From IMG/VR virus record IMGVR_UViG_3300020214_000011: a DNA stretch of 64,000 nt; one strand, given 5' to 3'. The DNA is from an uncultured virus (IMG/VR IMGVR_UViG_3300020214_000011). Lineage: Duplodnaviria > Heunggongvirae > Uroviricota > Caudoviricetes. Positions 1,981 to 48,000 of the stretch are shown piece after piece. The position numbers were made by a program, and so were the translations under genes. The stretch's first letter is position 1. Every line of letters starts with the position of its first letter. Under the pieces are notes generated by a model. The model saw nothing but the letters and a program-made list of their open reading frames with translations. It had not been told where the DNA came from and did no database searches.

Positions 1981-4900
1981 GTGGCTCGCCTCGAACGACA
2001 CCTGAGAAAAAGCCCGGGTGAGAAGTCGCTCGGGCCGACCGTCGGCGGTGCGCCGAGGAACCTGAACCCGTTCACCGCGAGGGACGCCGACCTGGACATG
2101 GTGGTCCTGGAGGGCATTGCGACGGTCAACTTCGGTCGAGGCGTCCCAGACCCGACACCCGGCGGAGCCGCGGAGACGCCGTCGGCGCCAAGATTGAGAT
2201 CGCCCCTCTACGCGACCAACGAGGATTTCGCCGTCGCGGCGATGTCCGGCCCGAATCGTCGCCCGAGCATCAGCGAGGAAAAAGACCCAGGTGACGTGAG
2301 GAATCCAGACGGTCATTTTCCGCGGCAAGCCGGACCGATGTGGAGGGACACGAGTTTCACGGCCCTGCACCTCGCGCCGAGGGAGCGGAGGGGCACGAGC
2401 CCGGCTTCGGTCAACACGTATCTCCACGCCGAATGGACCGAGCCGTACTGGGACGCCGTCAGGGACGACACGGGGATATGGAACTCCCCGCCACCGCCGG
2501 AGATGGAGGTCGAGCGCGCCATCTACGACGCAATGAAGAGAGAGACGATAGAGGTCGGCGGGTACAACGTTCCGTTCCCCCAGCACCCGAAGGAGTCCGA
2601 CTACGACCAGTACACGGACTCAACGGGCGCCACCGTCAGGCACCTCACTGCCACCCGAAGTTTCCCCTTCCGCAATAGGGAGAACCCGAGGTGGACGGAC
2701 GGGCACCCGCTGTACCACGCAACCCCGACCGGCGCGTTGCCGCGGATAGTCGCGGAGGGACTGGTCGCAGGCACCGACCGCCAGCTGTGGTTCGGGGCGT
2801 CACCGACGGTGTGGAACGAGCAATTCCCGCACAACGCCGCCCGCCAACTGAAGTCACCGATCAAGGGAATGTCGTTCCTGCGGATCAGCCCGACCCAAAC
2901 GATGAACGAGAGGCTCTCCCGCCTCGCGAAGGTCAGCGATGTCGATCGGGCAACGGTTCCCGGGCCCCTAGCGATAGATTCGGCTGGGAATCTGATCGGG
3001 CCGAGGGATTCCTGGGCGCAAATTGCGGTTGGTCTCCTGAGCGACGCCCTGTGGTTCAACGACATCAAGATACCGACGGAAAACATCGAGGTTCTGAGTC
3101 AGACCGGAGAATGGATCCCGTTGTACAGGACGGACCTCTCGGACGTGGTTGCTGATCCCACGAGCGGGCCCGAGGCCGGGATGGCGAAAGAAAAGAATCG
3201 CGGCATCAGAAGAATCCTTGCGTCAATAACGAACGGCAAACACGGCGACGACGAGGGGGCGGACGAACAAAAACCCGCCTCCAAGCCCCCCGCCGAGGTC
3301 CCGGTGGTGGCGCAAATACCCAACCCGGAACCGAGGATCAAATACTCAGACTCCTACGGCGGCGACGACCTCATCAAGAACGAGCAGAGAATCGTGCGCA
3401 TAGACCACGAGGGATTGGTGGCTGCGGGCCGCTGGAAAGACATCCACGGTGACCATTACGACTGGTGGGCGTACCCGATAGACAGGGGGAGCGGCCAGTA
3501 CGGCGAGGCGTTCAACGTGGCCGGCGAGCCACTCCGGAGGTTGAGGGAAGACCCGGAATTCCTGGCCAGCCTCGCGCGGGAAATAGAGATACAGGCCCTC
3601 GCCCTGGGTTGGTCGTTGTACGACCAGGACTGGGTGGAAAAGCTCGACTGGGAGAACGGCCAGGACTGGAGACGGGCCTACCCGACGAGGCTGTGGAAGG
3701 CAACCAGATCGGCGCAGATATTCGGGCTCCAGAGGGAGTTCGAGTCGATGCTCGCATTGCACGACTCGCTCGCAGCCGGGGGGGTGCGATTCAACCACGA
3801 GGATTACTGGGAATCACCCGGGACGGTCGACGATGTCCCGTCGCTGGGAAAATCGTGGAAGGAGAGGCAAGAGGAGTGGAGACAGCGGTACCCCGCGAGC
3901 GACGCCACCAGCTGGACGAGCCCGCACCGCCCGCTGCCCCAGGGTCCCAAGCGGGGTTCCGACGATTCACAAATGACGCTCCTAGAGGAGGATCGGGTGT
4001 GGGACGCCTACGACAGCTACACAACTCCGATCTTCCCGGTCGTGTCCGACGCCGAGGAGCTAGCCGACATCCTGTCGGAACCTGACGAGATGATCGAGTT
4101 CGGTTACCCGTACGAGCGAATCGACAAAGAAACGAGACAGCTGATCGCCGACGACATCTTCTTCGCCGTCTCCCTGTTGATGGACGGCGAGTTCCCCGAC
4201 GAGGAGTTCACGGACAGGCTGGAGTCCGCCGAACAAATGAGGCGATATGCGGACGGGCAGGAGGGCCTGTACCCGGAAGACAGGGACATCCTGTACGCCC
4301 TTGCCGACGCGCTGGAGAACCCGGTCTCGTTGTACGAGGACATCGGCTACGAATCAACCGACTCACCGGACGGCGAGGCGGGGATGGCAAGACGCTTCCG
4401 GCGCCTGGACGAAGAACCCGATTATTCGGATATGAGTTTGAGCGACACGGAGATACAGAACTTCATAGAGTCCGAAGCCGACGAGGTCACCGACGACCTG
4501 ATCTTCGGCAGGGAGGTGTCAAGGGCGTTCGCCCAGGAAGAAGACGAACCCATCCCGCGATCTGTCATACCAGTGAGACAAATATCAATCCCAACGCTGG
4601 AGGAAATTCCGGAGGACCTAAAACAGTCGTACATCAAGTTGTGGGCCGGAGGCGGGAGCTTCGTCGCCATAAATCGGCAGCTCGGAATATCCAACCATGA
4701 CGGCGCCGCCATACAAACGGCGCTCCTCAGAAGCGGGGAAATCCTCCCGAGGACCAAGCGCACCTCGGGGGACTCACTGCGTCTCACCCCCGAAGACGAA
4801 AGGGTCTTCGTCGAGTGGTCCAACGAAGGGGCCGATATGGACTTGCTGACATCGGTGTTCGGACTCACCGCCGGGCAGACCGCCGAGATCGCCGCAGACC

Positions 4901-7900
4901 TGAGAAGCCGGGGATTGATCCGCCGACGATTTCAAAAAAACTTTTTCACCGACAGTGAGCGAGACGCATTCGCGACCATCGTGAAGGAGGAACTAGCGAA
5001 AGGAAGAGGCATCTGGCCGCGTTCCGTGCTCAGGGCCCAGCGGGAGCTCGGATGGTCCAAGCAAAGAGCCCAGGCAATGCTCTTGTGGTACAAAACCCAA
5101 GTTAAGTTCGGTCTTATGCCCGGCATCAAGACCCAACTTTCCGATTCCGACATGATGAGGTTTGCCGCGCGATGGAACGACGGAGTGCCCGAGGAGCAGC
5201 TCGCGCGGGAGTTCAACGTCGCAGAGGGTTCCGTCAAATGGTTGGCTAGCAAGGCGAGAAAGCGGGGAATGCGCCTCAAGCGTCGCAACAGCACGGACTT
5301 GTCCGCCACGGACGGGTTGCGACGGAGTCCCTCACTTTCTCGGGAGTGGTTGTTGGGAGTAGAAAACGGCACGACATCGGGCGGGTACCAGGAGTTCATG
5401 GAGGGGATGCAAAAACGAGCGGTGGCACTATACCGAGACGGGAGGACGTACGGCCAGATCGCCAAGGAACTCGGAATCACCGGTGCTGACGCCAAGTACC
5501 TGGTGGACAGGGCCGCGACATCCGGTGAGAAGTCCCCACGCCGTAGGGGACCAAAATCAAAGGTCGCCGCCGCGCTCGGCATCACCGTGGACGAGCTGGT
5601 TGAACGGATGGCGGCAAGATACAACGAGGGCAAGACAGGCGCCGAGATGGCCACGGAATTCGGCACCACAATCGGCAACCTTAATCATTTCCTGAGGGTG
5701 GCGGGCAAAAGGGGTTTGTTGAAATTGAGGACGAGGCGACCGAAGACGTCAGTCAAACGCAACGTCACGGGAGCTTCCTCCCGAAAAACGAGACCGATCG
5801 ACGGATCCGACGGCGAGGCCGGGATGTCGGGCCCGGATTCGGCGGATCTGCCGGACGGAATAGACGGGGAACTAGAGGATCACGTCTACGAGGATCCGGT
5901 GTTCGGTTTGTCCATAAAGCATCCTCTCTTCTTCTGGTTCGCCCCGATCACCCCGGAAGTTGTCGACTTGATAAACGCGTCCTTCGCGAAAAAACGGGCG
6001 TCGGCGGACGAAGCCCTGAGACAAAAGAATTGGGGAAGGTACATATACCTACACGAACGCCCCTACCGCATCGACGCCTTCGAGGACGTCATGGACGAGC
6101 TGACGGACCAGGAGTACTGGAGCCGACTCTCGGACATATGGGTGGACAGCGAGAACATCGGGGCGCAACCCGATCGTTGGAGGAACCTGCTACTGAGCGA
6201 CCGCGGCTCGCGCGAGTCCTTCATGACGGAGGACGAGCGCGCGGAATTCGCGGCGTTGCAGCCACGGTTCACCGTGTACCGCGGTTATTCGGAGAACGAC
6301 CAGGAGGAGTTCGGAATGTCGTGGAGCACCGACGCGGGAGTGGCCGAGTGGTTCGCCAGGAGATTCGCAAGGGAAGACGAGAAGATCTTCATGGAGGAAA
6401 TGGAGGTCTCCAAGGACGACGTCTTCGCATATCTCACGCGGCGGGGCGAGGAGGAAATAATCCTCGACATGCGCACCGCGGCTGGTGGGACGGCGAGTAG
6501 ACGGGAGTTGCCGCGGAAACCCAAGACGAGAATACCCACGAGGAGCAGAAAATTGACTCCCCCGGATGGCGAGGCGGGGATGTCAAGGACAACGGAGAGG
6601 GGCGATCTGGTCAGGCTCGGCAGAAACTCGAATTATCCCAGCGGGTTGCAACCCGGATCGCTCGGCAGGGTCGCGAGAGTGGGCCGCGACGGAACCATCT
6701 CCGTGGAAATTGAAGGCGAGCTGATAAAACTGACCCCCGGCGAGGACCATTTCCTGGTGATCCCGAGGCAGTTTGACGTCCTGTACGAGCTGACGGACAA
6801 CGACGGCAACGTGATTTACCTACCAGTCGAGGACGTGACGTACCCCCGGCTCACCAGCGCCAGGGAGGAAGCGGCAAAAGCTGGGTATAGAGAAACAGGA
6901 ATCATCCGAGGAAACATGCGAACATTTTTTGACGACGCCACGGGTACCTACAAGACGGAACGGACGGAGTTTGAGGTGATCGGCGCACAGAACATCCGGC
7001 CGGAAACGACGGCACCGGTTACGAGGCAATCCACAGACACTCCCGACGGCGAGGCCGCGATGTCCTCCCAAAAAATCCCCAAATTCAACGGCGGCCACAG
7101 CAGCAAGGGGAGGGGGACTCCGTCGGGTGACGGCAAGGACTTGGCGATGAGGGACGTGGCGGACAGCGCCATAGTCGAGTTGGCGAACGACGAGAGGAGC
7201 AGTTCGCGGACGACGCTCGAGACGCTCGGGTCGTACCGGGCCGGGAGCATGGTCGTGATGCTGGCGAGAAACGGTGAGCTCCGGGGCATCCCGCTGAGGG
7301 ACGAAACCATCCAGGCAATAACGAAAGCCCACGACGACGGTGCGATGTTCGTCGTCGGGGACATGCCGGGCGTGGATTCGCAGTTCGTGGAATTTTTGGA
7401 CAAAATCGGGGCCGACTACACGATCTACCATGCGGGGAGTTCGCCGAGGTTCCGTCCGCAACCGCCCGACGCGCGCGGGGACGCGCCGTCCGAACTCCTC
7501 GCGCGCGTGACCGACGAGGACGCGCAGCTCAATCTCCTTTACTCGGTCCCCGGGGTCGCCGCCAGCGTCAGGATGAGGAGCACCGACGGTGCGCCCGTCG
7601 CCCCGGGCAAGAACGCAATCATGAAGCCGTACCTCCTGGCTCCGCACATAGACGTGAACGGTTTGGACGCGTCGGACCCGGCAATCCAGTCCCTTTCGCC
7701 GGCACTGAAGGCCGCCGGGTTGGGAACCTACAAAGTCACCGGGCACTCGACCCCCAAGGTCCAGGGACCGGTGGTGAAGGAGTTCGCGGACAGGCTGATA
7801 GGTCCCAGTGCCGTCGCCGACGCCGTGCTCGGAACGTTCCCGACCGCGGACGAGATGCTGACGATATACGCAGTAAACGCACTCATCAGGGCGAGGGCGG

Positions 7901-9069
7901 AGTACCTTTCCGACTCCGTCCTCAACGCGGACCAAGTAAACGAGGCGATCCTGTTCGGAAATGTCATGCTCGTGGGCCCAAAATTGCCCCAGGACCTGTG
8001 GGACATCCCGCAGGTCGGCACCTCCTTGTACCTCGACCCGTTCAGCTACTTCAAGAACTATTCCAACTTCCTCAAGGCCGTGATCGACGCGTTGCCGGAG
8101 CAGGTCAGATCCAGGCTGGGGGGCGGTCCCGACGACCGTGATGACGCCCAACGGTACTGGGGGGACACCTCGCTCTTCGAGGGCATCATAATCAGGGAAG
8201 ACGACGACATCTCCAGAAGGTTCGCCCCCATGATCAGGAAGCAGGCGGGAATAGTGTTGGACCACGCCAGGCGACACGGCGAGCTGACGAGGAAGTGGGC
8301 GCAAACCGCCTACGACTTGATGAAGGAGGCTGGCCTGACGGACGCAGAGGTGGCTTTCGTTGTCAACGAACACTGGACGAAAGCATCAACGTTCAAACTC
8401 GCCACGGTGCAACCGGGGAACGTGCTGGGTCACGCGGCGAGGCTGGGCGTGAAGGCGTTCTCCTCGAGGTACTCGCCGATAAGCCGGGCCATCACCAAGC
8501 GCATCGAAGCCGTCCAATCCGGGGGCCTCCGCGAGGAAGAGGATTTCGGCCTGCACGAGTTCTTCCACCACTACCTGGGCCAGGGTTTCACCAGGCACGG
8601 GGAGTACGTGGCGTTCAGGGGTCCGGCCGATCTGATCGATTCCTACCACGGGCACATGCAGTGGGCCTGGAACGACACCGGTCAGCTTGGGATGTTCGTC
8701 TCCAGGATCATGACGCAGGAGTTCGGCCGCGGCAAGACCGACGAGCCGGAGTTCGGGTATTCGCGCACACTCCATGACGCCATCGGCAGGGCCATCTACG
8801 ACAGGCTGAAGGAGATGCTCTCCTCGGCCGAGGACAGGCGAAAAATAATGGATCAGGTGTTCCCGGAATTCCACGGGTCGCCCAGCGAGGACGAGGCGAA
8901 GATCAAGGCGCTGATCCGAAGGCAGTTCGCAGGGCGAGACCTTGAAAGGGTCCGCCAATTTGCGGATTTGATGCCCGTCCTCAGACTGCTCACGGTGCAG
9001 GACCTGCTGGTGCCGAAGATGTACTACCCCTACGGGGGAACGAGTAAAATAATCGGGGGGAGCAACTGA
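1981..9069 (+). CDS. Giant multidomain (polyvalent) protein A, 2362 aa: shared N-terminal motif, Tpt1/KptA-like ART, OGFr-like domain, HTH array, R-S-E ART, DUF4314-like domain, SLOG-like domain, HExxH zincin
   Basis: Long open frame with a GTG start after a G-rich RBS. Motifs LYHAT...I..EGL; HYDWWAYP; YRDGRTYGQIAKELGIT; VYRG...SWSTD...GEEEII; FVVGDMPGVD; HEFFH. Five EAGM/EAAM delimiters. Confidence 0.8.
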   Translation: MARLERHLRKSPGEKSLGPTVGGAPRNLNPFTARDADLDMVVLEGIATVNFGRGVPDPTPGGAAETPSAPRLRSPLYATNEDFAVAAMSGPNRRPSISEEKDPGDVRNPDGHFPRQAGPMWRDTSFTALHLAPRERRGTSPASVNTYLHAEWTEPYWDAVRDDTGIWNSPPPPEMEVERAIYDAMKRETIEVGGYNVPFPQHPKESDYDQYTDSTGATVRHLTATRSFPFRNRENPRWTDGHPLYHATPTGALPRIVAEGLVAGTDRQLWFGASPTVWNEQFPHNAARQLKSPIKGMSFLRISPTQTMNERLSRLAKVSDVDRATVPGPLAIDSAGNLIGPRDSWAQIAVGLLSDALWFNDIKIPTENIEVLSQTGEWIPLYRTDLSDVVADPTSGPEAGMAKEKNRGIRRILASITNGKHGDDEGADEQKPASKPPAEVPVVAQIPNPEPRIKYSDSYGGDDLIKNEQRIVRIDHEGLVAAGRWKDIHGDHYDWWAYPIDRGSGQYGEAFNVAGEPLRRLREDPEFLASLAREIEIQALALGWSLYDQDWVEKLDWENGQDWRRAYPTRLWKATRSAQIFGLQREFESMLALHDSLAAGGVRFNHEDYWESPGTVDDVPSLGKSWKERQEEWRQRYPASDATSWTSPHRPLPQGPKRGSDDSQMTLLEEDRVWDAYDSYTTPIFPVVSDAEELADILSEPDEMIEFGYPYERIDKETRQLIADDIFFAVSLLMDGEFPDEEFTDRLESAEQMRRYADGQEGLYPEDRDILYALADALENPVSLYEDIGYESTDSPDGEAGMARRFRRLDEEPDYSDMSLSDTEIQNFIESEADEVTDDLIFGREVSRAFAQEEDEPIPRSVIPVRQISIPTLEEIPEDLKQSYIKLWAGGGSFVAINRQLGISNHDGAAIQTALLRSGEILPRTKRTSGDSLRLTPEDERVFVEWSNEGADMDLLTSVFGLTAGQTAEIAADLRSRGLIRRRFQKNFFTDSERDAFATIVKEELAKGRGIWPRSVLRAQRELGWSKQRAQAMLLWYKTQVKFGLMPGIKTQLSDSDMMRFAARWNDGVPEEQLAREFNVAEGSVKWLASKARKRGMRLKRRNSTDLSATDGLRRSPSLSREWLLGVENGTTSGGYQEFMEGMQKRAVALYRDGRTYGQIAKELGITGADAKYLVDRAATSGEKSPRRRGPKSKVAAALGITVDELVERMAARYNEGKTGAEMATEFGTTIGNLNHFLRVAGKRGLLKLRTRRPKTSVKRNVTGASSRKTRPIDGSDGEAGMSGPDSADLPDGIDGELEDHVYEDPVFGLSIKHPLFFWFAPITPEVVDLINASFAKKRASADEALRQKNWGRYIYLHERPYRIDAFEDVMDELTDQEYWSRLSDIWVDSENIGAQPDRWRNLLLSDRGSRESFMTEDERAEFAALQPRFTVYRGYSENDQEEFGMSWSTDAGVAEWFARRFAREDEKIFMEEMEVSKDDVFAYLTRRGEEEIILDMRTAAGGTASRRELPRKPKTRIPTRSRKLTPPDGEAGMSRTTERGDLVRLGRNSNYPSGLQPGSLGRVARVGRDGTISVEIEGELIKLTPGEDHFLVIPRQFDVLYELTDNDGNVIYLPVEDVTYPRLTSAREEAAKAGYRETGIIRGNMRTFFDDATGTYKTERTEFEVIGAQNIRPETTAPVTRQSTDTPDGEAAMSSQKIPKFNGGHSSKGRGTPSGDGKDLAMRDVADSAIVELANDERSSSRTTLETLGSYRAGSMVVMLARNGELRGIPLRDETIQAITKAHDDGAMFVVGDMPGVDSQFVEFLDKIGADYTIYHAGSSPRFRPQPPDARGDAPSELLARVTDEDAQLNLLYSVPGVAASVRMRSTDGAPVAPGKNAIMKPYLLAPHIDVNGLDASDPAIQSLSPALKAAGLGTYKVTGHSTPKVQGPVVKEFADRLIGPSAVADAVLGTFPTADEMLTIYAVNALIRARAEYLSDSVLNADQVNEAILFGNVMLVGPKLPQDLWDIPQVGTSLYLDPFSYFKNYSNFLKAVIDALPEQVRSRLGGGPDDRDDAQRYWGDTSLFEGIIIREDDDISRRFAPMIRKQAGIVLDHARRHGELTRKWAQTAYDLMKEAGLTDAEVAFVVNEHWTKASTFKLATVQPGNVLGHAARLGVKAFSSRYSPISRAITKRIEAVQSGGLREEEDFGLHEFFHHYLGQGFTRHGEYVAFRGPADLIDSYHGHMQWAWNDTGQLGMFVSRIMTQEFGRGKTDEPEFGYSRTLHDAIGRAIYDRLKEMLSSAEDRRKIMDQVFPEFHGSPSEDEAKIKALIRRQFAGRDLERVRQFADLMPVLRLLTVQDLLVPKMYYPYGGTSKIIGGSN

Positions 9070-9272: not shown

Positions 9273-9340
9273 GAAATATACGTCTATAATTGTTTGATGA
9301 TTGTCAAATCCCGTCGCCGGGAATAGAGGATAAAGGGCAG

Positions 9341-12300
9341 ATGTCGCCAACCCCGTTCAGAATTCCGTTCAACGCGAAAATCGTCGCCAGGCACGGAACG
9401 ACGTCCGTGTACGCGCTCAGGGATGGGCGCCTCGCCTTCGTCGACCACACCAAGAACCGCACCTTCTTCGACGGGAGCAGGGACGTCGGGACGGGGACCT
9501 ACGGGTCCGGTCACAACTCGGCGTGGGCCGACTCGCGCATCGTCGCCGTCGCGTCCAAGGGCGGCTCCGCCTCGTTCGCACAGACCAAGGCACTCAAACC
9601 GAAACAATCCAGGGTGCCACAGGAGGCGCCGGACCAGCCGGGGGAGGAGATTCCCGACGAAGCTTTCTCGCGATTGATGCCGATGATCCCGAAGGAGTTC
9701 CTCGATTGGGCGGCGTCGTACGAGATCGGCGACCCGCTGCCCCCGATGATGCCGGGTTACGGCGGGAGGACGCTGTGCAGTAAATCCATAAACGACACCT
9801 CCTACTCGCAGGACGACTTCGGGGTGGACCAGGTCGTCGAGCGCGTCCTCGCGGACATGGGTTTGCCAGACATAAACCCGGCCCTCGCCTTCGCCCCCGA
9901 GATCGAGACCAAGGGCCTCCCGCGGATGGAGCAGAAGGGCATCCTCGGCAGGGAGATCAGGGACATGGCGCGCAACATCGTCGACTCGATCCTCACGGCG
10001 AGGGGCCTGTGGAAGGACGAGCTGAACAAGATTCGCTGCGGGTCGGGGCCGAACGCCAACAGGTTCACCGACATCTTCGGGACCGGTTGCGACGTGCCGG
10101 GCGCCGACATGGCCGGCAACATCGTCGGCGCGATAAGGGCTGGGGTGGACGTTCCCGGTCCGGTGGACGAGGTGGCGGGGAAGATCGAGGGGGCGAGGGA
10201 GAGCGTCGCCGACGCGGCCGACGGAATTGACGTCCCGGGCGGAAAATCGTCCCTCGGCGAAAGGCTCAGGATGGCGCTGACGAGGGTCCGGGGCGGGCAC
10301 ACGCCGCACTACGTGGCCGACATGCCAGGCGACATTGACCCGGCAGCCGGCATGTCAGACGTGTTGAACAGGAGGTCCGACAAGAGGGGAGGGTTCCTGT
10401 TCGTCCGATCTCTCGTTTCGCGCAACAAACGGCGCGAGCGCGCCAAGAAGGCAGTGGGTCGTTTCGAATCCGCGGAGAAGATGGCCAGGGAGGCCTTCGC
10501 CACGCGCGAGTACCGCGACTGGGAGCAGGACTTCACGCTGAGAAAAGGCAGGCTGCCGAACCAGGGCGAGAAACTCAACTGGTTGGCCGAGCACATCGGA
10601 TGGAAAGGACAGTTCAGGGATGCGGCCGGCAAACTAGTGACGGACGAGCACGGCAACCCGGTGGGAAGCTTCGGGGGGTTGGCCGACACCGCGGTCGTGG
10701 ACGGGGTCGTGACCGACATGACCCATTTCGAAGCGATGGTCGAGCAGATAGTGCGCGACCCGAGATTCGTGGAGGGCGGTAATTTCGACAGGCTGAGCGA
10801 GGCCCAGAAGAGACGGCGCAGGGAGGAGGTCGCAAGGAACATATACGAGTACGGGCTCCAGACCCTGTTTGCGATGAAGAACGCCGGCGGACCGGAGAAG
10901 ATAGAGCAGATCCAACCCGACGGGAGCAGGATCCTGGTAGACAACCCGGAGCACAAGAAACGCTTCGCCGAGGTAATACCGACCCATTTCCGCGTAATTC
11001 ACCCGACAGACCCCAGCAACTTCCGTGGACTCGCGGATGCGGCAGTGGTCACCGGGGTCAACAGTTTCGAACCGGGATTTGATGACGAGATCGACTTTGT
11101 CCCGTTGCTGGGGACAGATCGGCGGATGACTGCGGGACGACCGCTCACGGCGGGCGTGCAGCGCCATGGAAGGGTCGCCGGTTCTCTGCCGTTGTACGCG
11201 CATGAGAACCAGACCCGTGGAGGCGAAATTCCGTTCGTGGCCTCCATAAGCCTGAATCCGGTGTGGTTCACCGACCGGCAAACACAGAAGGACAAGCTCA
11301 AGGCCTTCGGCGGTGACCACCTGGGGATGGACATAAGCAGGGAGGCGTTCTGGGCGCACACCGCCGACCACGAGCTGAACCACGTAGACGACTTCGCCCA
11401 GAGACTCGGGAACAAGCTCGGATACTGGGGGGAACTCGGCGGCGGCCGGGAGGAGTGGATGCGGAGGCTGTCGCAGCAAACGTACACGCGCACGCCCACG
11501 GGTGGTTATTGGTCGAACGTGATAGACCTCCGCAAGGACGCGGCCAGCTACACGTTCCTCGGGCAGCAGATCGCGGAACTCGACGCCAAACTCGCCGCGG
11601 CCACGACGACCTACGAGAGACAGAAGGCGATTTGGTTCTTCTACATGCAGAACATGAGGTTCAACGAGCGGACGATGTCCGACTTCGCAAGGTGGATGAA
11701 CAGATCGGGCGCCGGTTTCACGCCCGGCAAGCGCCTTTCGAAGGCCGAGCAGGCCGCGATGCTCACAGAGATCTTTGAAAACCTGCGGGCGCGCGGCTAC
11801 TCCGAGGAGCACGGGGTGCCAACCTTCAGTTTCTGGGAAGACATGATGGACACGCCTCTGGGTTACTGGGACCCAGCGACGGGGAAGTTCGAGTTCCCGA
11901 TGGACCCGCGCACCGGGCGCCTGAACCCGTACCCGCTGAACGTGATGAACCTGCAGCCGAAGTGGACGGGAAGAAGAACCCCGGCGAATGTTCCCTTCTC
12001 GGAAAACGTGGCCACATTTGGGATTGAACTCGATCCGGCACGCTTCGGGCCTGGACGGGACCCGTACGGGCAGGCGAGGCTTGACAACTCCGTCTCCAAC
12101 CTCCTGCACGGATACATAGGGGGGACCTACGCCGGCGAGGACGACTATGAATTCGCGGCGGAGCTGAGGACGCAACTGAACAAACAGGGCGCGCTCGCCG
12201 ACGTCAGGGAGTTCCTCGCCGACCCCGCCCGCAACATACACCAGCTCACCGAAGCCGACTTCATGACGCTCGTGGCCAGATACGTGGGGACGGACGAGGT

Positions 12301-19990: not shown

Positions 19991-20002
19991 GGGGGTGGCA
20001 CC

Positions 20003-23415: not shown

Positions 23416-23980
23416 TGACACGGGAGTGAAGGCGGATCCGCTTGGCGGCCTGCTGCCGCAGGAGGTCGTCACCGGCGACATAATGCGCGGCTACGGCCCG
23501 CGGCGCGGGAACCTCGAGCGGTTGCTGCGCTACTGGAGACCGATAATGAAAAAGCCTGGCGGCTTCCGGAGATGCAGGGTGATCCTGGCGAACCACCCCG
23601 AGCTCTACCCGCTGAACAACATCTGCGCCTGGTTGCACCACGAGACGACGGGCCTCTGGCCCAACGAGGGTTGCCACCACCCGGGGATGAAGAACTGCAG
23701 GAGGAAGTTGCGCGGAGTGGTGAACGGGTCGCTGTGGAGCGACTCGGATTTTGACGACCGCATCAGGAAGCTGACGAGGAGGGTGACCAAGAAGAAGGAC
23801 CTTCGGTCCAGCGGTGGAATCGACGCGGCGCCACCGTACGAGCCGTTCGTCCCCGTCATCACCGACGACGACTGGGACCACGCCTGGAAGGTCATGGACG
23901 ACTTCGTGAAGATGGAGACGAAGTTCGTCGCATTCGTGTGCGACGACAACAACTGGGAGATGTTCGACTCGGATGTATGA
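23405..23980 (+). CDS. Head-morphogenesis-associated Cys/His domain protein (191 aa)
   Basis: L.RYW...PGGFRRC...L...CAWLHH..TG.WP resembles a small domain I recall from actinophage capsid-maturation proteins. Overlaps both neighbours. Confidence 0.5.
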   Translation: MKTDDTGVKADPLGGLLPQEVVTGDIMRGYGPRRGNLERLLRYWRPIMKKPGGFRRCRVILANHPELYPLNNICAWLHHETTGLWPNEGCHHPGMKNCRRKLRGVVNGSLWSDSDFDDRIRKLTRRVTKKKDLRSSGGIDAAPPYEPFVPVITDDDWDHAWKVMDDFVKMETKFVAFVCDDNNWEMFDSDV

Positions 23981-32042: not shown

Positions 32043-32974
32043 GAGAGAAGGCCACCAGGGAGGACGCCCTCAAGATCGCCCGCTACATGGGTTGCCGAGG
32101 GGCTCATCAGGGCGAGAACGGGGATTGGTTGCCGTGCGCCGACGCCGAGACGCTCAGTCGTCTGTCCTCGGCAGCGGAGGACGACGCGTGGTTGCTGCGC
32201 TTTCAAAAGGACGTGCATTCGGGGAACGGACCCGTCGGGGGCGTGGCGGCGAACGTGGACATGAACGGCAGGAGGAAGAGGGGCGTGAGACCGTTCGACG
32301 TGCCACCCCCGGAGTTCGGGGATGGCAAGTCGGCCAACAACTACACGAAGCCGAAACTGAGGGGGAGCATCAAGAATCGCATCATGGCGGGCTCGCAGGG
32401 GGGCAAGCCAGGGCAGTGGTCGGCGCGCAAGGCACAGCTCGTCGCGCAGGAGTACAAGAAGCGCGGCGGAGGGTACAGGGGAAAGAGAACCAAGAAGCAA
32501 CGCTCACTCTCCAAGTGGACCAAGGAGAAGTGGACGACATCGGACGGCAAGCCGGCGATACGCCAGGGCGGGACGAGGCGCTACCTGCCAGCCAAGGCCT
32601 GGTCAAAGCTGAGCCCGTCCCAGAGGGCCGCCACCAACAAGAAGAAGCGCGAGGGCAACAAGAGGGGACGACAGTTCGTTGCCAACACGGAAGCCGCGGC
32701 GAGGGCAAGAAAGACCTCCACCAAGTCCGGTTACCCAATCATCGTGAAAAAGACGCTCGTGATGCAGAGATTCACGGAGACGGAGGGTCGCGGACCAGGG
32801 CCGCGTCGCAAGAAGAGGGGCAAGAGATGGGAGAAGCTCACCGAAAGGGGTCCCTCCCAGATCGTTTCGACCCCGAACTTCGGCCTCACATCCAAGTCGC
32901 AGTCCATTGATCTGCAAAAGATCGGCACGGAAGTGAGACAAGTGTTGACGACCTCAAGATTTTTGGCGGACTAA
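32027..32974 (+). CDS. Basic protein (~315 aa) with a GC.G.H...W.PC motif and a DUF5872-like domain
   Basis: GSQGGKPGQWSARKAQLVAQEYKKRGGGY...SLSKWTKEKWTTSDGK. Start is uncertain. Confidence 0.55.
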   Translation: MGTAVREKATREDALKIARYMGCRGAHQGENGDWLPCADAETLSRLSSAAEDDAWLLRFQKDVHSGNGPVGGVAANVDMNGRRKRGVRPFDVPPPEFGDGKSANNYTKPKLRGSIKNRIMAGSQGGKPGQWSARKAQLVAQEYKKRGGGYRGKRTKKQRSLSKWTKEKWTTSDGKPAIRQGGTRRYLPAKAWSKLSPSQRAATNKKKREGNKRGRQFVANTEAAARARKTSTKSGYPIIVKKTLVMQRFTETEGRGPGPRRKKRGKRWEKLTERGPSQIVSTPNFGLTSKSQSIDLQKIGTEVRQVLTTSRFLAD

Positions 32975-39000: not shown

Positions 39001-42000
39001 AGCGTAACCAACGTCGCACCGGACGCGCCCAAGTCGAATGATGACGGATTCTGGGACTCCATGGACATCGAGGCGGGCATGGCGCCACCCACCCCGGGGC
39101 CTCCGGTGCCACCGGATGAGCCGCCAAAACGCAGGCTTGAAGCCATGCCCGAGGAGACGGCGCGCAAGTTGTTCGGCGACGACATAGCCGGTTTCGTGAG
39201 GGAGGGAACGTGGACCTTCGGGGACACAACCTTCCCGCGGACTGCGATCCCCGAAGAGGCAACGTTGGCCCGGAAGGTTATTTCAGCCCTGTTCGCCGTC
39301 CAGCAGGGGGAGATGCCGGACGAAGTCTCCGAGCGCATGAGGTCGGAGGGAATTTACTCGGCGGCCCAGCTGATCTTCAGGGCCCTGTCGGCGCGGACGC
39401 TCGAGAAAATCAGGAACATGCCGGACCCACCCTACGACTTCCCGGCTGGCCCATACGACCCGAGGAGCGACAAGGACAAGGACAGGCAGTCCTTCTTCCT
39501 CGCGGCGATGCAGGAATACATGTCACTGCACCTCGCCCTCGGCGGCGGTGCGTTGCCCATTTACGACGACGCACCGGGCAGGGAGCCGTCTCGCTACTCA
39601 TTCGAGCTCACCAGGGAAGACTTCCAGATGGTCATACAGGATGACGATCTGATGAACTACAAGCTGATCTACAACCCGGGTCAGCCCAACGAGGCGGTCC
39701 GCGCGGACGAGGCGGTCGCAGCTAGGGAAGAATTCGTCGGCGACCCGTCGGAGCACCCCCTCATCCAGTCGATCGACCGGACAATGCACAACCTCAGACG
39801 GCAGTTCCCCGCCTTCACTGACTGGCTGAATCAGGACAACAGGTATTCGAGAATCCTCGGGGGAACGCACTACGAGAAGGATGAAAAGGGATTCGGTACG
39901 GGAATAATCGATTTGGTCAGGGCCGACCCTTCCTCAATGGATTTGGAAAAGGTGATCCGCGAGGTCGTCGAGCAGTTTGTCGATAGGGGTCACTTACATG
40001 GGGCGGACAGCTCGAGGTTGGTCGCCGACGCGCGCAGCCTCGGGCCGGACCCCGACGACGCCAGTCCTTTCCCGAGCATGACCAGTTACCCAAGCCCGGA
40101 ATTCTTGGAAACCTTCTCCAAACCGGACGCGGACATTGCGAGGCACAAGAAGATAGCCACGTCGACGGCGAAGGCGAGTGCGGTTGCTAGGCAATCCTGG
40201 TGGACCATGTTCACCACCGGAACGTTGATGGACCAGTTCGAGATAGCCGCCGTCACCGTGACGGACAAGGGCGACAACTTCCACCCCGATGCGATACTTG
40301 CCGGCCTGAGGAAATACGCTAGGGACAACAACCTCGCTGACCAGTTCGACGCGTACCTCGCCGCGGCGCAGGCCGCCTCCGCCGCGAGATTCAACTCAGT
40401 GGCCCTGCAAACGATACAGAACACTCTCAACGAAATAGCCAGGAACACGCCCAAAGGAATAAAGGGCGAGCTGTTAAGACTGGCCCAGCTCAAGAAGGTG
40501 CTCGAGAGGCAGTACAAGGAGCTCAGTCGCCACTATCAGGACAGGATCAGGGCGAAGATACAGACCATCTACTCTGCGTGGGCGTTGTTGTATAGCTCGT
40601 ATGTCGCGGAGAGGGATCTGGTGAATCGGCAAATCGCCAGGGGGCAGATTACCCCGCAACAGGCCGTCGATCGTCTGCAAAAAGCGTATTTCGATATGCA
40701 GCCGACGATGTACGCTGCCATCAACCAGATCTCGGATCTGAGCAGGAGGGCCGACGCCTCCACGCGCGCACGCGCGGTCATCGAGATCCAACAGCGGGAA
40801 ATAGACAATAGAATCGAGGAGATCAAGCAGGCGGCGCGCCTGACCGGCAGGGACGCCGAGGCCGGCATGGCCCTGATGACGGGCATCAACAACGCCTTCG
40901 ACAACCTCGCCGAGGACCCTTCTGGTCTGTCGGACGACTACAAAGGTGGCTCATCCATCGGGCGCTCCAGGTTCGGAGTGGTCGGTGGCGACAGGGTCGG
41001 GGCACCCAGGGCGAGACGGTTGCTCACGACGAACGAGAAGAAGCTCGCATCCGCGATCTCGAGGATGAACGACATGTTCTCGCAGAACAATGTTGACGAG
41101 CTCGGGCAGGTGCCGAGCATCAGGGCCGCCATGGAGACTTTGAGAGGGGGACGCCCCGACAGGGTCGTGCCGCAGATTCGCACGGGGGATCTGGGCGAGA
41201 TCGAGCAGGCGAAGGCCACCGCCGCGATGATGATGAGGGCCGACGCAGAGGCGGAGGCGACGACCCGGAGGATATTGGGCGCGCGCTTCAAGCGGTTCTC
41301 CGATCTCGCCATGAGCTCGTTGCCGGGCCTTACGAGGAGGGTGGTCGAGGACATAGTGGTCGACGGCGTCGCCGAGGCCATGCGGGCGAACGCCGTCAGG
41401 GAGGCAGACCTGGACGCGGCGCTGACGATGTACTCGGAGGCGATCCGCAACGTGAAGTACATGTCGGTGTTCAACCCAGTCCAGAGAACGGCCGACATCC
41501 TCAACGTGGAACCCGACGACGTGTCCGACGCAATAGCCACGGAGAGCATGATCATGAAGACGAGCAATCTGCTCAGGATGGCCCAGTCGTATGCGTCAAG
41601 CCTCTCCGGTGCCTACGGCAGGAACTCCGTGCTTCGGATGACCAACAACAGGTTCCCCGAGCTGAGAAACTTCGGCCCGCTCTTCCTTGAATCAATTTTT
41701 GCCTCGCCATCGGATGCGTCGTTGCGCAAGCTGAATTCGGCGATCTCGTTGAACAAACTCATGAGGTTCAACTCCCGCGCGGCGGCGGCGGCTTTCGGCG
41801 TCTCTGACGACGTTGCCCAGGTCATTTCGGCATCGGCGGCGCCACGGACGCGACCCACCGAACTGAGCAACCCGCTCCCGCACGACTGGAACTTCATGAC
41901 GTTCCGTGACAGGCAGTCTTGGCTCGGTTCCGAGGAGGCCTTCAACTCGCTCGGGAGGGCGGGAGTCAACGACGAACTCAGCAAGCTGCAGTCGCAAATC

Positions 42001-45000
42001 GAGGATTTCGGGTCAATGGACGGTCCGTACCCTGCGCTCGCCCGCATCATCACGGGTAACGCCACAAGCACCGGGGCGTTCGGCAGGCAGCTGATCACGG
42101 CCGACGGGAGAAGCCCGATTTTCTCATCAGTCGGTTTCGCCCGGGGCGACATGGTGCGCAACGGCAGGAACCAGATCTCGGCCCTCGTGGATGCGGTGCC
42201 CGGGATATCCCAGATGTCGGACAGGGCTCTCAGTCGGTTCCTCGGTGCACCGTACGACGTCATCGCCGAGTTCAGGAGGGATGGGGCTGCCGCATCGCCA
42301 GAAGTCGCGGAGCGCCTGGCGCTCGCCTTCGGCAAGATCTCGTCCGAGGTGTGGCCGTCCGACGCACCGCAATCGGATGCCGACCCAGGAAACTTCTACT
42401 GGCTCGGGTCGACCTGGGACAGGTCGGGCGAGATAATTGCGGCGATAGGCGAGGGGGCGGACCAGTACGCGGTCGCCGCCGACATGCCGAACGGGCAGTT
42501 CGTCGCAGAGAGGGTGACGCAACTGGTCGAGGACGGAACGGTGGGACGGTTCTACGACCAGATCGGGCTGGAGGAGATAACGACCGAGGATGCTCAGTCA
42601 TTCGTCGCTTCGGTCGCACCGAGGAGCAGGAAGGGAGTCGTGGAGATACTGGCATCCTCCGGATACAGGGAGCAGGACATAATCGACGCGACGGGATTCA
42701 ACCCCAACACGGTCAGGAACTCGTTGCACGAGCTGAGGAAACAGGGCCTGCTGCCCGAGGTGGTCGGCTCACCGAGGTGGATAGCGCGCAACGGCGACGC
42801 GGTGATCGCCGACTTCTCGTCGGGTGTGTCCAAGCGCGCCCTCATGAGGAAGTACGGAATAGGCGCGAAGACCCTCGACTCGATAATCGGGTCGTCGCGC
42901 GACGGATCAAGGATGGACGACGCCTACGGCGACGCCGAGGCGGGGATGTCAAACCGCAGGTTGCCCGACAATACCCCGATGTCGGACGGACCGCACCCCG
43001 ACTGGAGGGACGAGAGACAGACGAGGGCCGACGGAACGCCAGTGGACCGCGAGACGCAGAGCCCGCCCGCGAACGTCGCCAACCCCTTCGTCACGCCAGG
43101 TTCCCCAGCCTCGCTCGGTCTCAACGGCGAGATCAAGGACCCAGAGAAGATGCAGGACTGGGCGAGGGCGTTGTCAGCCTGGATCTCGTTCGCGCTCGAG
43201 GGCGGCTACTTCAAGAACCGCACGGAGGAAATGTCCAAGAGCGAGCTGCTTTTGGCCGGACTTTTCGGCGACAGCGGGGGCCCGGGCTTCGAGGAAGCCG
43301 AGTTTGAGATCGGCATGACCGACCCCGTTCGGGGCAAGAGGTTCAAGGCCTTCGAGATCGCAACGCGGCAGGACAACCCCGCCAACGAGCTGTTGTCCAT
43401 CAACGCAGTGCCCTCGATCATCCGCCCCCAATTCGACGCAACCGGGGTTTACACGGGAATACTGCCGATGCTGAGGGGGATGATCCTCGCCACCTACGAC
43501 AAGTACTTCAAAAAGTTGTCCGACCGGGAACTGGGATCGTGGGAGGGGGTCAGCACCCAGGACCTCGTGGATGCCGGTCTGCTTGACGAGCCGGAAATGC
43601 CGAGGGACGCGAGCGACGAGCTCCGCCTCAAGCTGTGGCAGCTCAGGCAGATGATGCGAAACCCGAACATGGTCGACGCACCCCCGCTATTCGAGCCGGG
43701 CGACGAGGTGGTCATGCGCACGATCATCCCGTTGATGGCCAACGCCGACGAGATGAACACGGTGCGCGCCAAGCACGGCGCGTCCCCCACGGGAATTCTG
43801 GGAGATCCAGCGGACAGGATTCAGTCGTCCACCCTCGGGGGCGTGGAACTCTGGCGGGGGACCAGGGACGCCGAATTTGAGGAGATGGCCCTCACGGGCG
43901 TCCCAATGTTCTCCAACCTGCTGCTCGGCTCCGTCGTCGCGGGCGATCCCGAGGCGAGGAAGATCGTAGACAACCTCACGCCGCGGCAGATCATGCTCTC
44001 CAACTGGGTGTACGGGATGTACACGGCCCTCGAGCCACTGGTCAACGCGTTCGCCGAAATGATGCCGATGAAACGGTTCCGCTCCGCTTCCCCCAACATC
44101 CCAGAGGAGCCCGGCGCAAGCGTCATGCTCGGCGACCGGTTGTACCTCCCGACCAGGGAGGTCGACGACCAGGTGTTCGCCTTTGCGTTCGACTCGTTGT
44201 TCAAGGCGTTGCAGGGAGTCTCCGAGTTGCCCGAAATGACGATCCTCGAGTCTCTCCCGAGCGGGGAGTTCGAGAAGTTCTACGGGGGCGACTCCGGCAC
44301 AAACCCGTCCAAGGCGGAGGCGCTCAGGATGTCTACGAAGATTCTGGCCCGCATCTTGGCCGATGTCCTCGCGACGGGCATATACAGGAAGGCCGTTCAA
44401 TCAATGGCGAAGGACGACGACGGAAGGACGTCGCCCTTCTACACGGACGGAATGCAAACCGACTGGTTCAGGTTGGCGAGACCGAGAGTCGACTCGTTCG
44501 GCTACTGGTCGATGTACGGGCCGAACATCGTCTACGCCGGCACGGGTGGAGACATATACGAGCCGGGGTGGAACGACCAAACCAACCCGATTTCGGAACT
44601 TGGAAAGAGCGGAGCGCAGCTAGCCGTCGACGCCGTCAAGGCGGACAAGGAGGCGATGCTCCAGCTCCAGAGGGTGATCGACGAGACCCCGGGCAAATAC
44701 TGGTGGGAGACCGAGGCTGCGTACGGGGAGCTCGCCGACGACCAGATACTGAACATGCACCCGGAGGAGTTTGCCGATTACGTCGCATCCATGTCAATGT
44801 ACGGCGAGGGCGAGCTGGAGGACGAGAAGACGAGTCAGATGCTCACGAGACTCGTCGGACGACTCTCCGCCATGGGTTACCCGAAGGCCGAGCTCGACCG
44901 ATTCGACGAGTGGATCGGGCCGATCATCGCTGCGATGCCGGAGGGGACGGTGACCAAGGAGTCCGTTCTCCGCCAACTGAAGAACATTTTCCCGTGGCTC

Positions 45001-48000
45001 GATCTCGACAGGATGGACGACATCTACCCAGTGGTTGGCACGAACTTCAGCGAGGCCGTCAAGGAGATGCGCAGGACGCTGGGAGGCTTGGCCCCCGAGG
45101 CTGTGTCGGCTGTTTACCGCGGCAGGGACCAGCTCATTCTCGCCGCGGAATCGGCCAACCGCGCGCTGACGCCTGACGCGGACAGAAAGAAGGCATTGGA
45201 GACGATGAACCTGTACGTCATCCCGGTGATAAAAGGCTTGATGGCGGTGCACAGGACAAACATCGAGATCGGGTTCCGGCAGGTCGCATCGTTTGCCGAG
45301 GGTCTGAAGCGCCTGACCCAGGCGACGCCCATGAGCGGGGTACAACGAGAGCTCATGACCATCGCATCACTGCTTGCCGAGTTGCGCCTAAGGGGATCGA
45401 TAAACGACGTCACTTACTCCAAGCTGATGATGGAGATCACCCGCGCCGGAGCCACGACCATGTTCGGCGACCTGGAGTTCGGCAACACCGTGATGGAAGC
45501 CATCGCAAACGGGAGCACCGATGACGTAATGACGTTCATGATGCTGATAGACGACGCCGTCTCGGACAACGTGGACGAGGACAGGCGACGCGAGTTCATC
45601 GACAAGTACAAGGGGTACATGACCGCCGCACAAAGCGCGTTCGGCGACGCCTTCGAGCAGCACATCAGGAGCGGCTTCTACGGAAGCGTGAAGACGATCG
45701 GCGAGGCGGTGAGGGAGATGGAGCCATTCATCCTCGCCACCGAGCGCGCGCGCAGGAGGAGGATCCTGCTCCAGAGATACAAGCGAGAGGTGATTGACCC
45801 CGTAAAGGACTCCCTGCTCACCGATGAGGAGAAGTTCAAGGACCTGAGGACCTTCAACGAGTGGCTCGACGCCAGCGGGTTCCCCGACCTCACGTACGAC
45901 AAGGGCAACTCGGGTGGCGACGGCGAGGCGGCGATGTCGGCCACCACGAGGACCGCGATGGCCAGATTCACCGATGACGCCGCGTCCGCGGTTGTCGAGG
46001 GCTACGAGGATTCGGCCAAGTCGGGTTCGTCAAGACTCAACCTCGGGCACATGCTGTCAGGGGCCTGGAGGGCGCTGATGACCGACACGAAGTCCGGTTC
46101 GTACGCGTCGAAACTCAGGAGACTCAACATAAGACCGGAGAGGATGGCCGCGGCGCTTGCGAGCATCACCACCCCGAAGGACGGCCCGTCGCCGAAACCC
46201 ACGGATTATTCCAAGGCTGCCAAGAACGCCATGATCGGGGCCATACGGGCCGCCTCCAGGAGGGGCGACGAGTACGTCGATCTCGGCGACCTGCTGCAGG
46301 CGATACTCGACCCGTCACTCAGGGGACGGGACGACGACGGCGTCGAAGAAGCCCTGATGCTCGCCGACATTTCTCCGAACGTGATAAGGATGGCTATAGC
46401 GCAGGCGAGAATCTCGGGCGGCAGGGAGCCGATGTCGGACGCCGAGGCCGGCATGTCCGCCAGTCGCATGGCGATGAACTCCGCCGACAAACGCGACGAC
46501 CTGAAGAGAAACAAGATGCTCGCCGACGGCATGTGGTTCAACTCCGACCGACAGGTCCCTGTCGCCACGGGGACTGCGACCGACGGGCAGCTCGTCGACG
46601 AGGTGGAAAGACTCATGAACGTCTACGCCATCGGCGCCGCGAGGTCCGAACTGGAACCCGTGGACTTCCGCAGCGGGGAATCACCCTTCTCCAACGCGGC
46701 GATCAGGCCGACCAACTCGCGCCTCATCCACGGCGACAACGGCCAGGAGCCGACCGACCTTGTCGGAGCGATCAGGCACGCCATGGACAGGGCCGACGCC
46801 CTGTTGACGGACGAGATGGAGCAACGGAGGTTCCACGAACTCAAGTCAAAGATGCGCCTCTACTTTGACAACGACGAGCACATGCCCGACGAAAAGGGGG
46901 ACGCCGAGGCCGGCATGGCGAGAAATTTCAACGAGATGATTGAGCCGATAACGGAGAACTTCGGGCGCTCGGAGAAGATCGGGCAGAGGCAGTATTTCGA
47001 GGGCATCTACGGCGACGCGGACCTGAGCGAGGCAGAGTTGCGAAAGGCGGCCGACGTCGCATCGCTCGGGTCGCCCTTCGACATATCGCGCAACCTCGAC
47101 GGCAACGAGGACGACGTCAACTGGAGCACGGGCCAGTGGTCGTTCAACAGGGACCAGACCTACGTTGAGGCGGCGGACTCCGTGATGATAAGGATGCGAG
47201 ACGGCGACTTGACCACGGCAGAGATTGCGATGATCTCGCGCAAGAGCGGCCCTTTCAGGGACGCCATGGCCCTCGTCGGCGGACTGAAGGACGAAGGCGA
47301 GGATTTCATGACCACGGCGGCCCGGGAGACGGCGGAGGAGGTCGGAGTTTCCCTCGAGAGGGCGCTACAGGCGCAGTACATCGGAACGATAGAGTCGCCC
47401 GACTGGGATCCCCGGTTCGTCAACGGAGCGAAAGTTGGCGCCGGGATGTTCGTCCTGCCGTGGGACACGCCCCTCGTGGCTGCGTCCGACGCCGCAGGTG
47501 CGCGCTGGGTTCCCCTGTCGGAGATAGCCGCGGGCCAGCACAGGCTCGCCTTCGGGCACGCCGAATGGATACGAAGGGCCGTCGCCGCGATGCAGATAGA
47601 CCCGTCGTCGGACCCCTACGGGGACCTTCGTCTCTCGATAGCGATCAGGCTCGGGTTGCTCTCCAAGGCCGCGAGGGTGAGGAACCAGAAGATGATCGCC
47701 ATGGTCAACCTCGTCCGCAGGGCGACGGGCAAGAAGTTGTTCCCCGAGCAGGGCGACATGCCGCACCCGATGATGCCGTGGGGCAACAGGGTTGCGAGCT
47801 CCTCGTGGAGATTCGGGCCCGATGCCGAGGCGGGAATGTCCGCCTCACCCATCGACGACTCACTGCCAAGGGAGCTCGGCCTTCTGTCCGTCCAGAGCTC
47901 GATGCCCCCGCGTCTCCTCGAGAGCGGTGCGGACACCGCGGGCTTCTACAAGGTCGGGCACTCCAGGGGGGGCGACGACTTGTTCTCGGCGTGGGGCGAC

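Follow-up and report, generated by a model that had tools for sequence, protein, structure and literature searches.

We analysed a 64,000-nucleotide stretch of DNA from an uncultured tailed virus of the class Caudoviricetes (IMG/VR record IMGVR_UViG_3300020214_000011; this whole stretch is the window below), in which positions 1981-48780 of the plus strand are filled by six very long open reading frames (ORFs A to F) ending just 5' of the gene for an HK97-type major capsid protein (49157..50479, plus strand; Pfam Phage_capsid 6.1e-44; phrog_10), which closes the region. An earlier note on this DNA had proposed that a short peptide of the form [DG]-x-[ES]-A-G-M, recurring in five of these ORFs, delimits the modules of polyproteins that are cut at or near AG|M into about 29 proteins for packaging and injection. 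We followed up this proposal in the window and in its relatives, among them the record G009, which is 94-96% identical to the window at the nucleotide level and whose base 39562 corresponds to base 1 of the window.

The six ORFs, like all features below unless stated otherwise, lie on the plus strand. ORF A (1981..9069, 2362 residues) has a leader and five delimiters, giving six modules, contains no Cys, and has its homolog at 41628-49028 of G009. ORF B (9290..19990, 3566 residues) has six delimiters from the earlier list plus an NAAM variant, and its four Cys are all in the first 267 residues. ORF C (20300..23050, 916 residues) has no Cys and no strict delimiter, and carries a leader segment that it shares with other giant ORFs; DGPVAAM at 20660-20677 is a candidate delimiter only. 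ORF D (23973..26066, 697 residues), a core gene of this phage family, is made of an N-terminal domain, one delimiter and a protein-kinase-like module. ORF E (26056..31605, 1849 residues) has the leader segment, one delimiter and a single Cys (residue 178), and ORF F (33049..48780, 5243 residues) begins with a Cys-bearing leader of the DUF3721 type (four Cys in the first 71 residues), followed by 11 delimiters and so by 12 modules.

All 24 delimiters of the earlier list were correctly placed and in frame, with five in ORF A, six in ORF B, one each in ORFs D and E, and 11 in ORF F. ORF A carries GPEAGM at 3166..3183 (kept in G009), DGEAGM at 4369..4386, 5809..5826 and 6565..6582, and DGEAAM at 7045..7062. 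ORF B carries the variants DPAAGM (10337..10354) and EPDVGM (14321..14338), DAEAGM (14696..14713), GPSAGM twice (16160..16177 and 16973..16990) and DPEAGM (18059..18076); the last is a doubtful site, and RRNAAM at 18110..18127, which was not in the list, is likely to be the true delimiter here. ORF D has EDEAGM at residues 419-424 (25227..25244), just 5' of its kinase-like module, and ORF E has DAEAAM at 27226..27243. The sites of ORF F are DVSAGM (35275..35292), DAEAGM (35836..35853), DSEAGM (36346..36363), DAEAGM (37078..37095), DIEAGM (39064..39081), DAEAGM (40852..40869 and 42931..42948), DGEAAM (45919..45936, just 5' of a ClpC N-terminal domain) and DAEAGM (46438..46455, 46900..46917 and 47821..47838). 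Six of the 24 are loose variants, namely DPAAGM, EPDVGM, the two GPSAGM, DVSAGM and DAEAAM.

Enrichment was assessed by shuffling the residues of the six giant ORFs (14,633 in all) 2000 times. EAGM was observed 16 times against 0.25 expected (shuffle maximum 4), [DG]x[ES]AGM 18 times against 0.08 expected, and the loose pattern that covers all the listed sites 24 times against 0.89 expected (shuffle maximum 5). When the window was counted in six frames with [DGE]x[ESAD]A[GA]M, 23 matches were found on the plus strand and none on the minus strand, and [ED]AGM in open frames of at least 60 residues occurred 16 times, only in ORFs A, B, D and F. As the earlier note had remarked, the residue after the Met is A, S, G, T or V at 23 of the 24 sites, against a background of 36% over 463 Met.

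The motif is under selection as a peptide. Across the 18 strict sites the first two positions of the A-G-M codons have a nucleotide entropy of 0, against 1.2-1.6 bits for the third, and the synonymous variation noted previously is real (Ala GCC 8, GCG 7, GCA 2, GCT 1; Gly GGC 10, GGG 7, GGA 1); that variation within A-G-M is restricted to third positions supports the earlier claim of selection on the peptide. The description of its surroundings as linkers rich in D, G, P and S was overstated, since the flanks are only mildly enriched (S 9.4 versus 7.0%, R 13.3 versus 8.9%, and D, G and P by at most 1 point each).

The delimiters lie at predicted domain boundaries, as the earlier note expected, in all four cases where a model was available. 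In the AlphaFold2 model of ORF D (13-row alignment, mean predicted local distance difference test score, pLDDT, 64) delimiter residues 419-422 fall in a segment with pLDDT below 50 (405-422), and in a second model, which covers the C-terminal 948 residues of ORF F (8 rows, mean pLDDT 63), all three internal delimiters fall in such segments, 162-189 for the site at 46438..46455, 312-348 for that at 46900..46917, just 5' of a Nudix module, and 610-639 for that at 47821..47838, just 5' of a zeta module. Because about one third of the residues score below 50, the placement of four out of four sites in linkers has a chance probability of about 0.01.

Several modules correspond to one recognisable domain or family each. 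The C-terminal module of ORF D (25242..26063) has a protein-kinase-like fold of the CotH/CtkA type (CotH 5jda, Z 14.2 with 233 residues aligned; CtkA 3akj, Z 13.6; Foldseek E 7e-6). In ORF F the module at 45934..46452 is one complete ClpC N-terminal domain (ClpC-N; PDB profile search, ClpC2 9p2p, 4.8e-10), with a profile match covering residues 9-174 and Foldseek TM scores of 0.75-0.83 to ClpC1/ClpC N-domains; it is followed by a Nudix hydrolase (46915..47835; Pfam NUDIX 1.2e-10; phrog_1198; PDB 2fml) and a zeta-toxin-type kinase (47836..48777; Pfam Zeta_toxin 2.1e-20; Foldseek 3q8x, 1gvn and AvrRxo1; phrog_16619), each of which fills one module. In ORF A the module at 4384..5823 contains sigma-70 region 4, a helix-turn-helix (HTH) domain (Pfam Sigma70_r4_2 6.7e-9), and the module at 5824..6579 equals a whole stand-alone phage protein family (phrog_4776, 1.6e-58, profile positions 26-226 of 237). 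Of the domains named in the earlier note Nudix, zeta and Clp-N were thus recovered; the GNAT match was weak (E 0.009, under the Pfam cut-off) and the proposed ADP-ribosyltransferase (ART) module matched no family at E ≤0.05.

Leaders apart, the cargo modules are mutually unrelated, and single polypeptides combine unrelated domains, as in ORF F with its ClpC-N, Nudix, zeta and unassigned modules. ORFs A, B and E and residues 1-4295 of ORF F, searched as single sequences against the PDB, gave no match at E ≤0.01. The nearest relatives of the ClpC-N module are the N-domains of mycobacterial ClpC2 and ClpC1, which suggests a decoy or competitor for the adaptor and substrate site of host ClpC1. The N-terminal part of ORF D (23973-25241) contains a conserved block RGYRCPEGYQYGGRFTD..TCG, then RDGFVLEPVVP..PDNRDMEGA, then GERRKLG; its residues 223-404 form a folded domain of unassigned fold in the model, and none of 201 homologs of ORF D has a Pfam family.

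The comparison was then extended with the capsid protein as query, which gave 286 related stretches in IMG/VR, from which 80 loci (10 kb on each side) were kept. An open frame of at least 1000 residues was present on the capsid strand in 64 of these 80 loci, and one of at least 2000 residues in 33. The strict window motif occurred in them 26 times on the capsid strand and never on the other, only in the closest relatives. Distant lineages have recurrent junction peptides of their own, x[NDS]AGM, PTASM, SISGRM, DSGAM, GPIGKM and GLTGA[M/I/V/L], along with versions without Met (RLSSG, xLRSS, L[TS]SGR, GLAS, G[VM]RS, STRS and SRFS), so that Met is not universal in the delimiter. When the last four modules of ORF F were aligned across eight phages, all 24 junction cells (three junctions in eight phages) carried the phage's own motif; at the junction orthologous to 42931..42948 the relatives read GAEAGM, GADAGM, EAMAGM or EPTASM.

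These versions bear directly on what is being read. In the ISGRM lineage both codon families are used for Arg (CGN 9, AGR 5) and for Ser (TCN 11, AGY 2), which rules out a nucleic-acid signal, and the Met-less versions together with Ile, Val or Leu at the Met position rule out a start codon. That the motif differs between lineages implies co-evolution with a reader encoded by the phage. The confinement of the motif to giant ORFs of the head region, which the earlier note had put forward as a test, was borne out in G006, a complete relative of 137.8 kb with terminal repeats: its four giant ORFs, located from the protease gene to that of the capsid protein, hold 14 ISGRM-type sites, against one in other open frames of at least 80 residues on both strands and one in a shorter plus-strand frame.

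Gains and losses of modules between the window and G009 occur exactly at the motif, in line with the module shuffling that the earlier note had proposed to look for. At the delimiter 4369..4386 (ATG at 4384) G009 has an extra module of 759 bp (253 codons) between two motif copies. The window module 6580-7059, opened by the delimiter at 6565..6582, is missing from G009, where homology resumes at 7045. The two modules at 14711-16987 are also missing; both ends of this stretch are on motif copies (14696..14713 on the left, 16973..16990 on the right), and the GPSAGM site at 16160..16177 lies within it. Finally, 3' of 18127 the modules of the two phages differ, the point of divergence following the conserved NAAM (ATG at 18125) of RRNAAM. 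Among the 22 listed sites that can be aligned in G009, 21 keep [AV][GA]M. The delimiter DNA most likely has an added role as the joint for cassette gain and loss.

A candidate enzyme is found in the relatives. The S78 protease family of HK97 gp4 (PF04586) was detected in 7 of 10 related records searched, inside open frames of 3381, 4384, 4580, 4740 and 5469 residues in five records and in frames of 802 and 896 residues in two. In G009 the portal gene (18968-21187; Phage_portal 4.3e-46) is followed by a 5469-residue ORF with 12 delimiters, whose first module has the S78 domain at residues 27-181, plus DUF6321 (46 bits against PF04586, cut-off 21; phrog_80 4.4e-27); G009 has 34 delimiter sites in total. 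Its gene order and the alignment place the start of the window within a cargo region of about 65 kb, which extends from the protease gene as far as that of the capsid protein. The giant ORFs have the portal and protease genes on one side and the capsid gene on the other, and the zeta module matches phrog_16619, annotated 'minor head protein'. The first module of the G009 ORF (766 residues, up to its first delimiter) can be aligned from one end to the other with the protease that G006 encodes as a separate protein (802 residues, 45% identity), so that the delimiter of one lineage stands roughly where the gene ends in another. ORF D, which is conserved and adjoins the capsid gene in many relatives, was also considered as the protease and was set aside; its C-terminal module folds as a protein kinase, and the fold of its N-terminal domain (223-404) is unassigned.

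The giant ORFs share two further properties. A segment of about 26 residues, [DN]AD.D..EG..N.GRG..DPTP, lies near the N-termini of ORFs A (2083..2160, DADLD..EG..N.GRG..DPTP), C (20465..20542), E (26788..26865) and F (33430..33507), as found by sequence comparison, and also in the S78 protease module of G009 (G009 23017-23094). Because it is common to four ORFs and the protease module, it is a candidate prohead-targeting signal; a complex prediction of the capsid protein with this segment scored 0.00 and gives no verdict, neither for nor against binding. Moreover, there is no Cys in the roughly 11,400 residues after the first delimiters: the Cys of ORFs B, D, E and F all precede the first delimiter and ORFs A and C have none overall, against 1.5% in the helicase and 1.1% in the methyltransferase encoded in the same window. 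G009 and G006 have the same Cys-free cargo pattern, and the lack of Cys in cargo that follows leaders with Cys suggests that packaging or ejection imposes a physical constraint.

We propose that the giant ORFs encode head-cargo polyproteins, which would be cut at the delimiter by the S78 head protease of the phage inside the prohead and then delivered to the host, and we give this reading a probability of about 0.6. The motif is best read as a cleavage code, given its lineage-specific versions at homologous junctions and, in G009, the joining of an S78 domain to a giant ORF that bears the motif. Each polyprotein would consist of a Cys-bearing leader and a train of unrelated Cys-free cargo modules, among them the kinase-like domain, zeta toxin, Nudix hydrolase, ClpC-N domain, sigma-like HTH domains and many unassigned modules. 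D-x-E-A-G-M plus a small residue at the junctions would be the recognition site of the S78 protease (HK97 gp4-type), itself the first module of the first polyprotein; the trains would be cut inside the prohead, into about 29 proteins for the window, and the products would leave with the DNA at infection. A broader version, to which we give slightly less than an even chance, holds that in this abundant phage family each lineage has a private, fast-evolving cleavage code, in which the S78 protease and 30-35 delimiter copies co-evolve and dozens of Cys-free effectors encoded by about 65 kb of genes are injected. If the delimiter is both cut site and recombination joint, any gene could enter as a cassette, its product being trimmed to size and delivered with the DNA.

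The polyprotein reading of the earlier note is thus partly supported: three of its proposed computational tests, on confinement, domain boundaries and module exchange, agreed with it. Comparison across lineages gives no special support to its cut position, AG|M. Aligning the versions on a small P1 residue (I-S-G|R-M, L-T-G|A-M, L-S-S|G-A, P-T-A|S-M) suggests E-A|G-M, which resembles the (V/L)-x-A|S rule of assemblin-type proteases, and the invariant Met with a small residue after it suggests M|S/A instead.

A number of observations weigh against our reading. No protease domain was found in the window by Pfam (whole ORFs; the 29 modules at E ≤0.05; 13 pieces at E ≤5), among PHROGs matches or by tblastn with the protease of Gordonia phage FlyingTortilla (PQ184803); the protease gene lies upstream of the window start, as seen in the relatives, and the link to S78 rests on those relatives. 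The lineage-specific motif is absent from the N-terminal region of the capsid protein in 15 of 15 aligned capsid proteins, from the other ORFs of the window and from the stand-alone protease protein of G006, and the N-terminal region of the capsid protein is the classical S78 substrate. Site 18074 (the Met ATG of DPEAGM at 18059..18076) is not conserved, its DPEAGM reading DPEAEA in G009. The AlphaFold2 models are modest, with the third of residues below pLDDT 50 given above, and GAGG stands 5 nt before the ATG in 13 of the 18 strict sites of the EAGM lineage, as a consequence of the spelling GAG-GCN.

It is unlikely that the delimiter is left uncut and serves as a docking or spacer tag (recognised, for instance, by a chaperone, by the portal or by the inner face of the capsid) that orders intact giant proteins for packaging or for threading through the tail. 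Peptide-level selection and a position in linkers would fit any short linear motif, Cys-free composition would fit unfolded transit of cut and uncut proteins alike, and some polyvalent proteins, the giant multidomain proteins of phages and conjugative elements, are transferred at full length according to the parts of PMC5512222 consulted. A tag of this kind sits poorly with a delimiter that equals a gene end in another lineage, with modules that equal whole stand-alone families, with a first train headed by a protease, and with the small residues that dominate the shared core of the lineage versions, as they do in protease sites. We consider it slightly less likely still that the cut is made by an enzyme other than S78, either a protease hidden among the modules or a host protease acting after injection. 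The lack of the motif in the capsid protein would be explained in this way, most modules have no assigned fold and could hide a peptidase, and zincin-like metallopeptidases are given as the commonest in polyvalent proteins in the same parts of PMC5512222; nevertheless neither the window nor the 5469-residue ORF of G009 yielded a second peptidase family, lineage-specific versions argue against a conserved host enzyme, and in 5 of the 7 records that have it S78 is part of a polyprotein with delimiters.

The two remaining explanations place the signal in nucleic acid. A recombination joint of 18 nt, conserved as DNA with the peptide as a by-product, would account for the three window/G009 indels that begin and end at the motif, for the fourth difference, a replacement that starts at the NAAM variant, and for the near fixation of 12 of the 18 nt of delimiter DNA. 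As the sole cause it is very unlikely, given that variation is strictly periodic at third codon positions, that Ser and Arg draw on both codon families in the ISGRM lineage and that the motif is confined to a single frame and strand; a joint explains the shuffling and not the conservation, and most likely acts together with cleavage. Least probable of all is that the motif marks internal translation starts, with GAGG as a Shine-Dalgarno-like element before the ATG and the modules made separately from one mRNA. The GAGG of the 13 sites and the small residue after Met would fit such starts, and the window alone does not exclude internal ribosome sites, but the relatives do exclude them: A-G-M is kept where AAC, GAC or AGC replaces GAG, the ISGRM, PTASM and PIGKM versions have no consistent purine run, and several versions have Ile, Val or Leu in place of Met, or no Met at all. 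Furthermore, genuine gene starts in the window use AGGAG or AGGAGG with A-rich spacers, unlike the delimiters, and there are no stop codons between the modules.

Among known systems the closest in content are the polyvalent proteins (Iyer, Burroughs, Anand, de Souza and Aravind 2017; PMC5512222; the statements that follow refer to the parts of that article consulted). These are giant phage proteins in which domains of the conflict type (zeta, Nudix, kinases, DNA-binding) are joined. They are associated with head genes, and the prediction is that embedded peptidases process them and that they are packaged and delivered. Catalytic domains of the same type are present here (Zeta_toxin, NUDIX and the CotH/CtkA-like kinase fold, Z 14). 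The differences lie in the junctions and in the scale: no recurring junction motif is described in those parts of the article, whereas here there are lineage-specific delimiters; the assemblin-like peptidase is said there to be 'always at the C termini', whereas here S78 comes first, at the head of the G009 5469-residue ORF, upstream of the window start, no embedded peptidase having been found within the window; and here up to 13 modules are joined per ORF, over about 65 kb of genes and with Cys-free cargo. Literature searches, mostly at the level of titles and abstracts, found no description of a phage polyprotein delimiter.

The head proteases of other phages offer a second comparison. T4 gp21 and phiKZ gp175 are prohead proteases of a kind similar to that of phage SPN3US. 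In SPN3US gp245 cuts head and ejection proteins after A-X-E with a preference for Ser at P1', according to the part of PMC10052503 consulted. The three systems resemble the one proposed here in that many internal head proteins carry the same short consensus and small residues stand beside the cut. However, these enzymes mostly trim N-terminal propeptides of separate proteins, whereas the sites here lie between full modules of a polyprotein; their motif also marks the capsid protein and the portal, unlike here, where the capsid protein is without it; and the protease family here is S78 and not T4 gp21-like. With HK97 gp4 (MEROPS S78, PF04586) the head region shares the order of portal, S78 protease and capsid protein with an N-terminal coiled-coil region (in HK97, the delta domain of gp5). 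The HK97 protease is a small separate protein whose main substrate is the capsid protein, cut at K103|S104, in contrast to the protease here, which heads a 5469-residue polyprotein and is separated from the capsid gene by about 65 kb of cargo genes.

Eukaryotic viral polyproteins are cut at picornavirus 3C sites, at Gly-Gly|X by pS273R of African swine fever virus (ASFV) and at Ala-Gly|X by vaccinia I7. The likeness to these is that one ORF would give many proteins through a short cleavage code read by an embedded viral protease. The vaccinia and ASFV analogies of the earlier note hold as functional likeness and not as homology: the systems are not homologous, the proposed enzyme is a Ser protease (S78) rather than a Cys protease, and the products would be cargo and effectors rather than replication or core proteins. 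Among phages, MuF-toxin fusions join an SPP1 gp7-type minor head protein to a C-terminal toxin; the Phage_Mu_F domain had no Pfam match in any ORF or module of the window, a divergent version being possible.

By capsid protein the closest named phages are Gordonia myoviruses (43% amino acid identity; FlyingTortilla). Like the window, FlyingTortilla has an HK97-type capsid protein and a myovirus head module, and cargo-like genes (RNA ligase, VIP2-like ART toxin and large hypothetical proteins) lie between its portal gene and its protease/capsid gene; there the cargo is encoded as separate genes, the capsid protein alone is detectably homologous, and no recurrent delimiter was found in its head-region proteins (5,922 residues). 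These nearest cultured capsid relatives and the ClpC-N module suggest an actinobacterial host. The capsid protein of the window has an N-terminal coiled-coil (delta-like) region, and its start is most likely the ATG at 49157 rather than that at 49076 given in the ORF list, as judged from an AGGAGG 7 nt upstream and from the relatives, which all begin MS(Q/E)D.

Other ORFs flank or overlap the giant ORFs. At the 5' end of the window an ORF of 619 residues (110-1969) with 13 Cys, CxxC-like pairs among them, is kept in G009 (39641-41644), has no Pfam family, and shows a weak C-terminal match to phrog_80 'head maturation protease' (E 9e-4). A 305-residue Arg-rich ORF (31125-32042), which overlaps the end of ORF E in a different frame and lacks homologs throughout the 80 related loci, is probably not a gene. 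Two consecutive proteins (32027-32974 and, as the start of ORF F, 33049-33400) begin with the DUF3721-type motif GC.G.H....G.W.PC; 47 and 54 of the 80 loci have homologs of the two N-termini directly 5' of the capsid gene, as small proteins in lineages without a giant ORF F. On the other side of the capsid gene ORF H (50625-52994, 789 residues, 11 Cys) has a weak Thioredoxin_4 match; its residues 28-115 are 56% identical to the stretch after the S78 domain in the protease-bearing ORF of the relative G005 (L083), and it has no similarity to the capsid protein (E 0.74). Further on, the minus strand encodes a DNA methyltransferase (54199-55554; phrog_116, 2e-56), a helicase (57279-59522; phrog_62, 2.5e-105) and an HTH regulator (60024-60713; phrog_8, 1e-11).

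Processing of giant multidomain phage proteins has been predicted before, and we found no described cut site for them. The delimiter gives exact junctions, open to testing, for about 29 proteins in the window and parses thousands of unassigned residues into candidate stand-alone effectors, providing an annotation rule for ORFs from metagenomes. Its lineage-specific versions would represent a natural case of co-evolution between a protease and its substrates, and the exchange of cassettes from motif to motif suggests a route by which phages acquire injected functions. If the code is confirmed, pairs of protease and delimiter could serve as orthogonal cleavage systems. If the broader version of our reading is true, the injected effectors would include a kinase, a zeta toxin, a Nudix hydrolase, a ClpC-N decoy and sigma-like factors, and these phages would have a bacterial-virus counterpart to the polyproteins of eukaryotic viruses, one that serves an effector arsenal and not replication.

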